Source: Raillietiella orientalis
Taxonomy: Eukaryota
Assembly: GCA_036172245.1 (NCBI GenBank)
Contig: JAYWIR010000003.1
Location: forward strand, 7,068,001 to 7,132,000
Reading direction: 5' to 3'
DNA length: 64,000 nt
Shown: in pieces, positions 13,479 to 17,021 of the stretch
How positions within the stretch are numbered: the stretch's first letter is position 1
Layout: the number at the start of each line of letters is the position of its first letter
Translations under genes and position numbers: made by a program
The notes under the pieces: model-generated
The model's input: the letters and a program-made list of their open reading frames with translations, nothing else
Told to the model about the DNA's origin: nothing
Databases searched by the model: none

Positions 13479-13798
13479 GCAACCGTGGAGGCCGCAACCA
13501 TGCGAGATGAACGGCTGGCTTCGTACGAGCAACTCCCTCCCCTCATTTGGAAGAATGCGATGAACGTGCAAGAGGTGAAGAGGACGGAGGAGGGTGAGGA
13601 ACAAATGGCGGACTCCAGTTTTCCGAGGGTCATTTGATCCCGGAGAGCGGCGCCAGATTTTACCTGGGGGCACAGATGAAGGAAAAAATGGCAGACGGAT
13701 TGGCAAGGTGCGTATCCATCGAAGAATCCTTCCAGCAGAGAAGACCAAAGCTGCGAAGGATCCTCGGTGCTACAACAGGACTGAGACGCATTATAAGA
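13479..13798 (+). repeat. ~320 bp direct repeat, copy A (partner 16708-17021)
   Basis: Alignment by eye: 6 mismatches in the first 144 bp, roughly 80% identity in the remainder. Confidence 0.95.
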
Positions 13799-14699: not shown

Positions 14700-15620
14700 T
14701 GCGGTAAGGGCAGCATCAGCATCCGCTCATCTGTCACCAGAGAATTCGTCTTCGATTTGCACCTGCACAGGGAACGTGCCGAGGTGGAGCGGCTAAAGCA
14801 AGAACAGAGACTCCTGAGGAGGCGGAGGCCAGCGTCATGAGCTGCGCTTCCGCCAGGCGCCCAACGCTTCCGGCAACGAGTCGATCGCCGGCGATCTTTG
14901 GAAGACTCCATGCTGCTCGCTCGAGCTGACCTCTCCTCCCTACCGGAAGCCTACCTCAATCCGGAAGTCAGTCATGTTCTCCTCATCCGTGTCAGTCCGG
15001 GGTCGACTGCTGTCTGCTGACCTGCCGAGCGCTTCGCGACCCTAATGCGCTGCCCCGAGCGCCGAGAAGAAAGCGGCGCACAGCAGCCGACCGGAGCACG
15101 GAGGGAGACCATTCTGTGGGTCCCTCATAAGAACGGGATGGGATATACGCATGTCGCCGCGAACGACGGCGTGCGCCTGCGCGCCATCTGGCCGCAGGGG
15201 AAATCAAGAACGCTTCCAGTTCAGTCTCCGACCGGACCGATCCTCAGTGGCCAACGCCCCTACCGAAGTTACGCATCCGGTTCGCGTTCACCCACTGTGA
15301 AGAAGCTGCTCATCTTGGACACCAGGAGTGAATGGCCTGGCATTTGCATCTCTGGGATGCCTTCCGGACGCCGCAAGAACTGGTGGCATCTTCCACTTGG
15401 TCTTCTGTCCGAGGAAGGGTGCCTCTGATTTCCTGGCTCCCGGTCGTGAGCACACCGCAAGAAAACTCCATAATCTGGAGAAGAGAGGCGGAAGAACGAG
15501 TCCTTGATGAGTGTCGATGTAACCCGTCCTCAGCTCTCCGGTCATCCCGTAGGTGCTGCATCTCCATTCCGAGGAGCGCATGCCTGCTTTCTTGGAACAG
15601 AACGCTCATGGACTGCGGAA
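14700..15620 (+). mobile_element. Degenerate LINE ORF1 remnant
   Basis: ISGMPSGRRK followed by a Cys-rich segment. Same layout as the other ORF1 remnants in the window. Confidence 0.35.
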
Positions 15621-15644
15621 TGCAGGCGGTGTCGCAGGGAGGTC

Positions 15645-16094
15645 TTAGACGCGTTCATCCAGCGGGAGTTCCTTGAGAACGTTTATCTTGAAGGAAAAGG
15701 GATACTCGTGCCTCATGAGAGGGTGGTAGTTGGGGTCGTCGACCGTGCGCACCCACAGAAGGAACTGAGATGGGTTGGCATCTTTCATCTCCAGGTGGTC
15801 CAGAGCCATCCGGATGCACTCTTTGTCTGTGGTCTTCGGGGTCAGAGAGAGCATCTTCAGCGTCACCTGTTCTGGCGGCTGGCCTTCCTGGAAGAGGGGA
15901 GGCAGCGGCTGATCAAACAGCAGTCCCGTCGCTCCGGGTCTAAGCATGATGTCGGCCTTGCTGGAAGAGCAGAGGAAGACATTCATTACGGTAGCCTTCG
16001 TGGACGTCTTGAACTTCTTGGCTTCTTCCTTGTCGGAAGACAGGTAAAAGATGGAGCTCCTGCGGATGGAGTGGCACCTGCAGATGGCCTCGAC
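15645..16094 (-). pseudogene. ARHGAP20-like fragment: RA domain plus linker/RhoGAP start, in reversed order
   Basis: KECIRMALDHLEMKDANPSQFLLWVRTVDDPNYHPLMRHEYPFSFKINVLKE matches the ARHGAP20 RA signature (YQLWV..PYPLIGHEYP..IKM). The upstream block CHSIRR..KKFK..NVF..SSS..GLLFDQPL..PEQV matches the linker and RhoGAP start. Stop at 15645-15647. Confidence 0.8.
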
Positions 16095-16144
16095 CTGAAG
16101 AAGAGACGTGGAGGGCGTGGTACCTTCGTGGGTCAAGTTAGTCA
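16095..16144 (-). other. Spliceosomal intron 3' end (branch point and acceptor)
   Basis: Minus strand TGACTAAC at 16144-16137, then pyrimidine-rich ctcttcttcag ending at 16095 directly before the exon-like block. Confidence 0.7.
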
Positions 16145-16707
16145 CTCATGTGCGTTCTTCGGGGCTGTTAGAGGGCAAGCCCGAGAATTTTATTCCCTAT
16201 GCTGGTGGTGCCTCTCTGCAGTCTGCACGCACTATTCCGGAAAGTTCCCCCCAGGGTGAAGAGCTGTTTCCAAAAACGCCTTGACACCAGTCCTTGGAAA
16301 CGGTTTTCATCCGGTCACTCCCAGGGCGTTCATTCATAGAAAGACGAACAAACCAGTTGGGAAACAAATGGTTCCAAAAACAAAGAACAAAAAAATACAA
16401 AAAAAAAGAAAGTGTGAATATAAGGTCTTTTGGCATTGGACGCTCCTTCTGGATCGGCGCTCTCTAACTTGTATTCTTCCTGCAGTTGTGGTCACCTCTC
16501 ACCCGTCCTCGTGTAGGCGGCTGCTATGAAGGTGACCTCCCTTTGCGAAGTCCGAGACTCCAGCCACGGTGCAGGATCAGACGAGTGCGAGGATGCGACA
16601 GGTGGTTCGCCACTCGGCTGCGTCGGAACATTTCTCCTCAAAAAGGGAACATACGGGAGTCGGAGGGGTAGGACATCTCACAGATTCCGACGGTCCTTGC
16701 TGGGATA

Positions 16708-17021
16708 GCAACCGTGAAGGCCGCAACCAGGCGAGATAAATGGCTGGCTTCGTACGAGCAACTCCCTCCCCTCATTTGGAAGAATGCGATGAACGTGCAA
16801 AAGGTGAAGAGGACGGAGGAGGATGAGGAACAAATGGCGGACTCCAGTTTTACCTGAGGGTGATCCAATCCCAGAGAGTGTCGCCAGACTTCGCCTGGGC
16901 GCACAGATGAATGAACAAACGACAGACGGGTTGGCATTCCATTGAAGAACCCTTCCAGCAGCGAAGATGAAATCTGCAAAGGATCCTCAGTGCTACAGAA
17001 GAACTGAGACGCATGATAAGA
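16708..17021 (+). repeat. ~315 bp direct repeat, copy B (partner 13479-13798)
   Basis: Direct alignment with copy A. Confidence 0.95.

Follow-up and report, generated by a model that had tools for sequence, protein, structure and literature searches.

A permuted ARHGAP20-like fragment

The window discussed here is a stretch of 64,000 nucleotides of DNA, and its minus strand carries an ARHGAP20-like fragment within a stop-free frame of 166 codons (16145-15648) whose translation we call P0001. There are 61 frames of at least 166 codons among the 2141 stop-to-stop frames of this GC-rich window, and thus the open frame is in itself unremarkable. A longer stop-free frame of 261 codons (15474-16256, plus strand), without a Pfam match, runs antisense to the whole fragment and shows how easily long open frames arise in sequence of 55-64% GC. 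The features of the fragment are collected in Table 1.

Table 1. Features of the ARHGAP20-like fragment in window positions. Amino acid (aa) numbers are those of P0001; profile positions are those of the family profile described in the text.
Feature	Position	Strand	Basis or assignment
Limits of the frame (P0001)	TGA 16148-16146, TAA 15647-15645	-	sequence
aa 1-17, read as an intron end in the original prediction	16095..16145	-	positions 216-226 on re-ordering
Block 1, aa 18-95	15861..16094	-	profile positions 227-302, linker and RhoGAP start
Codon R29 (AGG), equivalent to R238 of CQFILR	16059..16061	-	colinear spliced junction 16060/16059
Non-colinear junction, codons T95/L96 (ACG/CTG, 15861/15860)	15858..15863	-	domain limits 95/96; phase 0 on both sides
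Block 2, aa 96-160	15666..15860	-	RA (Ras-association) domain from a conserved exon start, profile positions 146-210
aa 161-166 (LPLDERV side), 3' edge of the copy	15648..15665	-	positions 211-215 on re-ordering

The identity of the fragment is clearest in its second half, where the Pfam RA family (PF00788) is recognised on aa 93-151 with an E value of 3.7e-4 and a score of 21.5 bits (cut-off 21). Among 1.84 billion representative proteins searched exhaustively, 17 match at E <= 0.001, every one of them centred on the RA part. The best of these is P0002, recorded by its source as a Penaeus vannamei protein, which shares 46% identity with the fragment over 67 amino acids (E 2e-19). Word-based protein searches returned no relative closer than P0002, and an identity of 46% to the nearest relative suggests either a very diverged copy or a very diverged lineage. 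The wider family comprises 398 proteins at E <= 1e-10, of which 120 are among the matches listed; most of those listed are named 'rho GTPase-activating protein 20-like' and come from insects, crustaceans and arachnids. No solved structure has a sequence match to P0001.

Both halves of the fragment were placed on a profile of 550 positions made from 122 ARHGAP20-like proteins, each trimmed to begin with the PH domain and to end where the GAP domain starts. Block 2 scores 60.5 bits on this profile and Block 1 scores 18.9 bits. Shuffling aa 18-95 2000 times gives no score above 4.8 bits, and among the remaining 2140 six-frame pieces none scores above 5.6 bits, so that the match of Block 1 is above chance and is not an effect of composition. 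Its alignment is weakest at the last three residues, which have posterior values of 8, 8 and 4. The block includes the end of the RA exon (CRCHSIRR, corresponding to CQFILR), followed by a basic and serine-containing linker and by the start of the RhoGAP domain, in which LLFDQPL...PPEQVT corresponds to LFGvPL...lPkpvm. Only these first residues of the RhoGAP catalytic domain are present (to position 302), and there is no GIFRxSA arginine finger. A pattern in Block 1 of the type FYLSS..EE..F was considered as the C-terminus of a PH domain and was rejected, since the PH domain is included in the profile and the only placement of Block 1 is on positions 227-302.

The two blocks stand in an order that was already proposed in the original prediction and that the profile placement bears out, with the linker and GAP-start block lying before the RA block. 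Pairwise comparisons agree. By BLASTP, aa 13-81 match residues 470-543 of P0002 (E 0.011), whose RA domain occupies residues 397-463 and thus comes earlier in that protein, and aa 46-81 match residues 107-145 of P0003 (E 0.010). When the 17 homologues were compared with the window by tblastn, Block 2 was matched by all 17. Four of the 17 database matches (P0002, P0003, P0015 and P0017) cover both parts, and in all four the linker follows the RA domain, which is the native order. Sequence comparison thus confirms the reversed order: the linker and RhoGAP start precede the RA domain here, and follow it in all relatives seen.

When the halves are put back into native order, they align as a single domain on positions 147-301 with a score of 86.6 bits, compared with 79.6 bits for the arrangement as found. 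In this re-ordered form, aa 161-166 and aa 1-17 together fill the variable stretch 211-226. Because the re-ordered halves align as one domain, P0001 represents approximately one full turn of a two-exon unit (146-238 plus 239-302) that was opened in the variable region.

Splice positions of related genes

The intron map used for comparison comes from 31 RA-encoding loci on metagenome contigs, for which the profile was mapped on the translations and the DNA at the block ends was inspected. Most of these loci are genomic and have introns, and four (L002, L005, L007 and L010) are intron-less and transcript-like. Position 146 is an exon start in 25 of the 31 loci, and in all 19 distinct sequences it is directly preceded by a pyrimidine tract and AG, in phase 0. 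Of the 19 genomic loci covering position 302 (...PKPVM), 10 end an exon there, and GT follows directly in 6 of 6 distinct sequences, again in phase 0. The intron after 302 is lineage-variable and is missing in L003, L019, L020-22 and L028-31. The same two positions are evident in read-through 'proteins' of unnamed contigs: in five of them the similarity to the family sets in at 146, behind unrelated residues of which the last is Q, and two end at 303 and continue with 'VS' (GTNAGN).

The last codon of Block 1 (T95, 15863-15861) and the first codon of Block 2 (L96, 15860-15858) are adjacent, with zero residues between the blocks. Because T95 aligns with position 302 and L96 with position 146, both of which are conserved splice positions, the T95/L96 step is, by reference to the splice positions of relatives, an in-frame, phase-0 junction of the back-splice type, in which a donor is joined to an acceptor. 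A splice-like in-frame junction had been proposed at 15867/15866, within a CAG/GTG sequence. Its splice-like and in-frame character is retained and is strengthened by the conserved donor and acceptor positions of relatives, but the site itself has to be moved two codons (6 nt) downstream, to 15861/15860.

Position 238, the arginine codon of CQFILR, provides a second point of comparison. It is interrupted by a phase-2 intron (AG/GT) in 11 of 11 distinct genomic relatives, and there are a few lineages without this intron (L004, L020-22, P0003 and P0015). The window copy is continuous across codon R29, which is the site of this intron. Taken together, the donor-to-acceptor join and the uninterrupted passage through 238 suggest that a spliced RNA served as template for the fragment.

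More generally, the intron positions of the ARHGAP20-like gene vary between lineages more than the protein does. Positions 146-394 are in one exon in L020-22. The exon blocks of L028-L031 are 146-208 and then 236-326, so that the RA exon ends at approximately 208 (AG/GT), and these loci are without the DLDHCNN...CQFILR segment that is kept in most relatives and in the window copy. An intron located near position 213, between the RA core and the linker, is found in the P0018 cluster.

The original prediction was built on several minus-strand features, all of which are present. These are TGACTAAC at 16144-16137, CTTCTTCAG at 16103-16095, a 228-nt open block (16094-15867, equivalent to V18-Q93), the CAG/GTG at 15869-15864 and an RA-type block. 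The sequence CAGGTG occurs again at 16081-16076. At the other end of the fragment, GT directly follows codon R165, and GTCTAAG is found at 15650. The branch point, pyrimidine tract and AG ahead of Block 1 make a good-looking 3' splice site exactly at the start of clear homology. Nevertheless, aa 1-17 are more likely to represent a variable coding linker (positions 216-226), or an insertion edge, than the end of an intron, a view that is drawn from the alignment of the re-ordered fragment and from the related loci, none of which is interrupted at this point.

Surroundings of the fragment

The 64 kb contain no further ARHGAP20 piece, such as a PH domain or a GAP core, as judged by tblastn with the 17 homologues and by a six-frame profile search. 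No homology to the family extends into the flanks, where three frames on both sides score negatively against the profile. Likewise, there is no sign of a second copy in the flanking DNA: the comparison of the unit with the flanks gives a score of 23 against a null maximum of 29-30, and the two flanks compared with each other give a score of 12 against a null median of 10.5-12. Several flank matches had been noticed by eye, namely GAAGAACGC/GATGAACGC, RCSTYGM and a pyrimidine tract at 15492-15475, and given the null flank comparisons these are attributed to chance.

Hallmarks of insertion by a retroelement were also sought around the fragment. There is no A run on its sense (minus) strand, and the longest plus-strand T run between 14500 and 17500 is 4 nt. 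No AATAAA or ATTAAA is present downstream of the fragment, and the repeats of 10-18 nt found around it are at chance level only, so that no target-site duplication can be assigned. On the plus strand there is an A-rich tract at 16376-16411, with a longest run of 9 nt, which is T-rich on the strand of the fragment and lies about 230 nt upstream of it. This tract may represent the tail of an unrelated element on the plus strand.

Just upstream of Block 1, a minus-strand frame (16171-16314) encodes ..KQLFTLGGTFRNSACRLQR.., which recalls the RhoGAP sequence QLF..G-GIFRKSA-ARL of positions 303-330. The GTFRNSA near 16230 (minus strand) was therefore considered as an arginine-finger remnant and was rejected, since it ranks only 10th of 2141 by sub-profile and 8th of 2141 by Smith-Waterman alignment. 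Motifs similar to GTFRNSA occur elsewhere in the same arginine-rich translation, and only the position of this one beside the fragment is odd.

The fragment is bracketed by a pair of direct repeats on the plus strand (13479-13798 and 16708-17021), which are about 320 bp long, 86% identical and 3.2 kb apart. There are no further copies of this repeat in the window. We considered whether the pair might be the LTRs of a capturing element and rejected this, as inspection by eye found no TG..CA ends or matching target-site duplication and there is no reverse transcriptase nearby. The repeats are probably two copies of a dispersed repeat of the SINE or MITE type rather than LTRs.

The remainder of the window is gene-poor in appearance, and between 32 and 40 kb it is GC-rich (60-64%). 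Besides the ARHGAP20-like piece, the 149 longest frames contain no match to a Pfam family that reaches the curated cut-off. Among 80 neighbouring frames between 9 and 23 kb, there is no Pfam match at E <= 0.001, and no reverse transcriptase. There are no Rfam families or tRNAs in the 64-kb window.

State of the copy

Where the family conserves a profile column to at least 90%, the fragment keeps the residue in 11 of 15 columns of the RA part and in 7 of 13 of the linker part. The RA core motifs LDHLEM, LW and HE are still present. Losses include a glycine that is found in 120 of 120 relatives and is an arginine in the fragment, along with changes from PY to YH, from LFG to LFD and from FILR to SIRR. 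These losses look like neutral decay, although a very divergent lineage could instead account for them. On the strength of these sequence features, the fragment is not considered a functional ARHGAP20-like member, and the locus appears to be without evident function of its own.

Possible origins of the fragment

We lean, with restrained confidence, towards the interpretation that the locus is a processed pseudogene derived from a circular RNA (circRNA), for which the splice sites of the parent are read from its relatives. In such a scheme, the RA exon (146-238) and the linker/RhoGAP-start exon (239-302) of a parent ARHGAP20-like gene would have been spliced to each other in the normal manner, and the donor after 302 would have been back-spliced to the acceptor before 146 to form a circle of about 500 nt. 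From this circle, opened in the variable stretch around 215-226, roughly one turn would then have been copied by a reverse transcriptase. Finally, the cDNA would have been inserted on the minus strand at this site, where it would have undergone neutral decay.

We favour this interpretation because the blocks are permuted, their join falls on two conserved splice positions, the 238 intron is missing, the fragment is limited to two exons in about one turn, there is no poly(A), and decay is evident from the loss of invariant residues. The layout expected of a copied back-spliced RNA, which was the central proposal of the original prediction, thus holds up, with permuted blocks joined on conserved splice positions in a fragment that is alone in its 64 kb. 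Several points count against the circRNA-copy model. The intron after 302 varies between lineages, Block 1 scores low and aligns least securely at its end, no target-site duplication, reverse-transcriptase remnant or second copy is found, the nearest relative is only 46% identical, and the 3' splice-site-like signal at 16095 has to be a coincidence.

That signal is the starting point for a different kind of circle. The original prediction had invoked an exon-intron circle, in which 16095-16260 would be the 3' end of a retained intron, Block 1 would be the whole of exon n+1, and Block 2 would be exon n followed by the 5' end of the intron (GTCTAAG, 15650). The placement of TGACTAAC and CTTCTTCAG exactly where clear homology begins is accommodated by this idea, as are the GT after codon R165 and the intron that separates the RA core from the linker in some lineages (at about 208 in L028-31, near 213 for the P0018 cluster). 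However, an intron near position 227 is present in 0 of the 31 related loci, and the lineages with the 208 intron have neither the 302 donor nor the CQFILR motif that Block 1 carries. The supposed intron sequence instead fits a variable coding linker, given that re-ordered aa 161-166 and aa 1-17 fill positions 211-226 within one domain of 86.6 bits, and coding sequence rich in S, T and P naturally resembles a pyrimidine tract. The upstream and downstream flanks, moreover, have no similarity to each other beyond the null level given above. The retained intron is therefore not supported, and we regard an exon-intron circle as unlikely. Another RNA-based possibility is that a linear transcript already containing the 302/146 junction was copied and later trimmed at both ends, the junction having come from a tandem exon duplication in the parent or from trans-splicing or exon repetition. 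The same precise in-frame exon-exon join would be expected, and other routes to non-colinear junctions are noted by Dong et al. (PMC4897178). Against this stand the extent of the fragment, which is just one turn with nothing beyond 146-302, and its lack of a 3' end or poly(A). In addition, a RhoGAP start followed by an RA domain would break the GAP domain of the parent, and a repeated RA-linker unit is present in 0 of 17 database matches and 0 of 122 profile proteins. We consider this origin to be improbable.

A rearrangement of a gene fragment or processed pseudogene at the DNA level, by tandem duplication and deletion or by patchwork repair, would leave the fit to splice positions as a matter of chance. 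The two occurrences of CAGGTG (16081-16076 and 15869-15864) offer a possible microhomology, and the region is repeat-bearing, with the 320-bp direct repeat pair around the fragment. Yet the codon on either side of the join coincides exactly with a conserved intron position of phase 0, for which we estimate the chance under random breakpoints at approximately 1e-3 or less, assuming about one intron position per 40-50 codons. A deletion at the caggtg microhomology after tandem duplication, which had been offered as the alternative in the original prediction, fares poorly because the join as defined by homology is not at CAGGTG and neither the DNA nor any reading frame of the flanks contains a remnant of a second copy. 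An origin by such rearrangement is quite unlikely in our assessment. We also find it very unlikely that the fragment is a live exon of a lineage-specific gene that has very long introns, or a terminal exon of one, with a linker-like segment before the RA domain. The length of 166 codons free of stops and frameshifts, the preserved RA core motifs (with 11 of 15 conserved columns kept) and the plausible acceptor at 16095 would suit a live exon, but equally long frames are common in this window (61 of 2141), a 261-codon frame lies antisense at the same place, and the invariant residues described above (G to R, PY to YH, LFG to LFD and FILR to SIRR) have been lost. Nor is there a PH or GAP exon within 48 kb upstream or 15 kb downstream, or a poly(A) signal after the stop. 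Lastly, an assembly artefact or chimera is hardly credible, as a mis-join would not be expected to hit two splice positions in frame or to remove the 238 intron, and unrelated sequence is continuous on both sides of the fragment.

Relation to known circRNA-derived pseudogenes

Arthropod ARHGAP20-like proteins such as P0002 (Penaeus vannamei) and P0004 (Adelges cooleyi) share with the fragment the RA domain, a CQFILR-type motif, a basic and serine-containing linker and a GAP start of the form LFG-PL...PKPVM. These proteins have the order PH, RA, linker and RhoGAP, whereas the fragment is permuted and lacks the PH domain, the arginine finger and the GAP core. The fragment also resembles ordinary LINE-mediated processed pseudogenes in being intron-less at a conserved position, located apart from a gene, and decaying. 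However, ordinary processed pseudogenes have colinear exons, a 3' end, poly(A) and often target-site duplications, and the fragment shows none of these. LINE-type copies of linear mRNA normally retain the 3' end or poly(A).

A closer counterpart is found among pseudogenes that are derived from circRNAs, which have been defined in mouse and human; for example, mouse copies of circRFWD2 contain a junction of exon 6 with exon 2 (Dong et al., Cell Res 2016, PMC4897178). The same authors caution that non-colinear junctions can have other origins (PMC4897178). As in those pseudogenes, the fragment contains only the exons of a circle, here a proposed one, with introns removed and without a poly(A) tail (PMC4897178). 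There are also differences. The published cases were set against a known parent gene and a detected circRNA (PMC4897178), whereas the splice positions used here are those of relatives. A family of 33 copies is described there (PMC4897178), whereas the fragment is a single copy. Finally, no LTR-type flanks are recognised around the fragment, unlike the cases of Dong et al., and its best matches are to arthropods.

The kind of pseudogene proposed here is thus already known, and the fragment should be viewed as a further candidate case. In the literature searched, in which other papers were judged by title, there is no primary report of such a pseudogene outside mouse and human, and a non-mammalian report may exist.

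Whether a circular RNA of two exons was copied into the genome of a non-mammalian, arthropod-like animal and inherited is, in our judgement, an evenly balanced question. A bolder version of this proposal would see the 166-codon frame, together with its acceptor at 16095, recruited as an exon. To our knowledge, circRNA-derived pseudogenes are the only genomic record of the re-entry of circular RNA into the germ line, and we know of no established route for their copying and insertion. An invertebrate-type case would extend the phenomenon and suggest that a different reverse transcriptase is involved.

If the proposed origin is true, circRNAs would be reverse-transcribed and fixed in the germ line well beyond the mouse and human cases, by retroelement machinery other than mammalian L1 or LTR elements. 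Sequence alone would also suffice to detect such scars, through comparison of permuted exon junctions with conserved intron positions. For the ARHGAP20-like gene, the proposal predicts a specific circRNA consisting of its RA exon and its linker exon.
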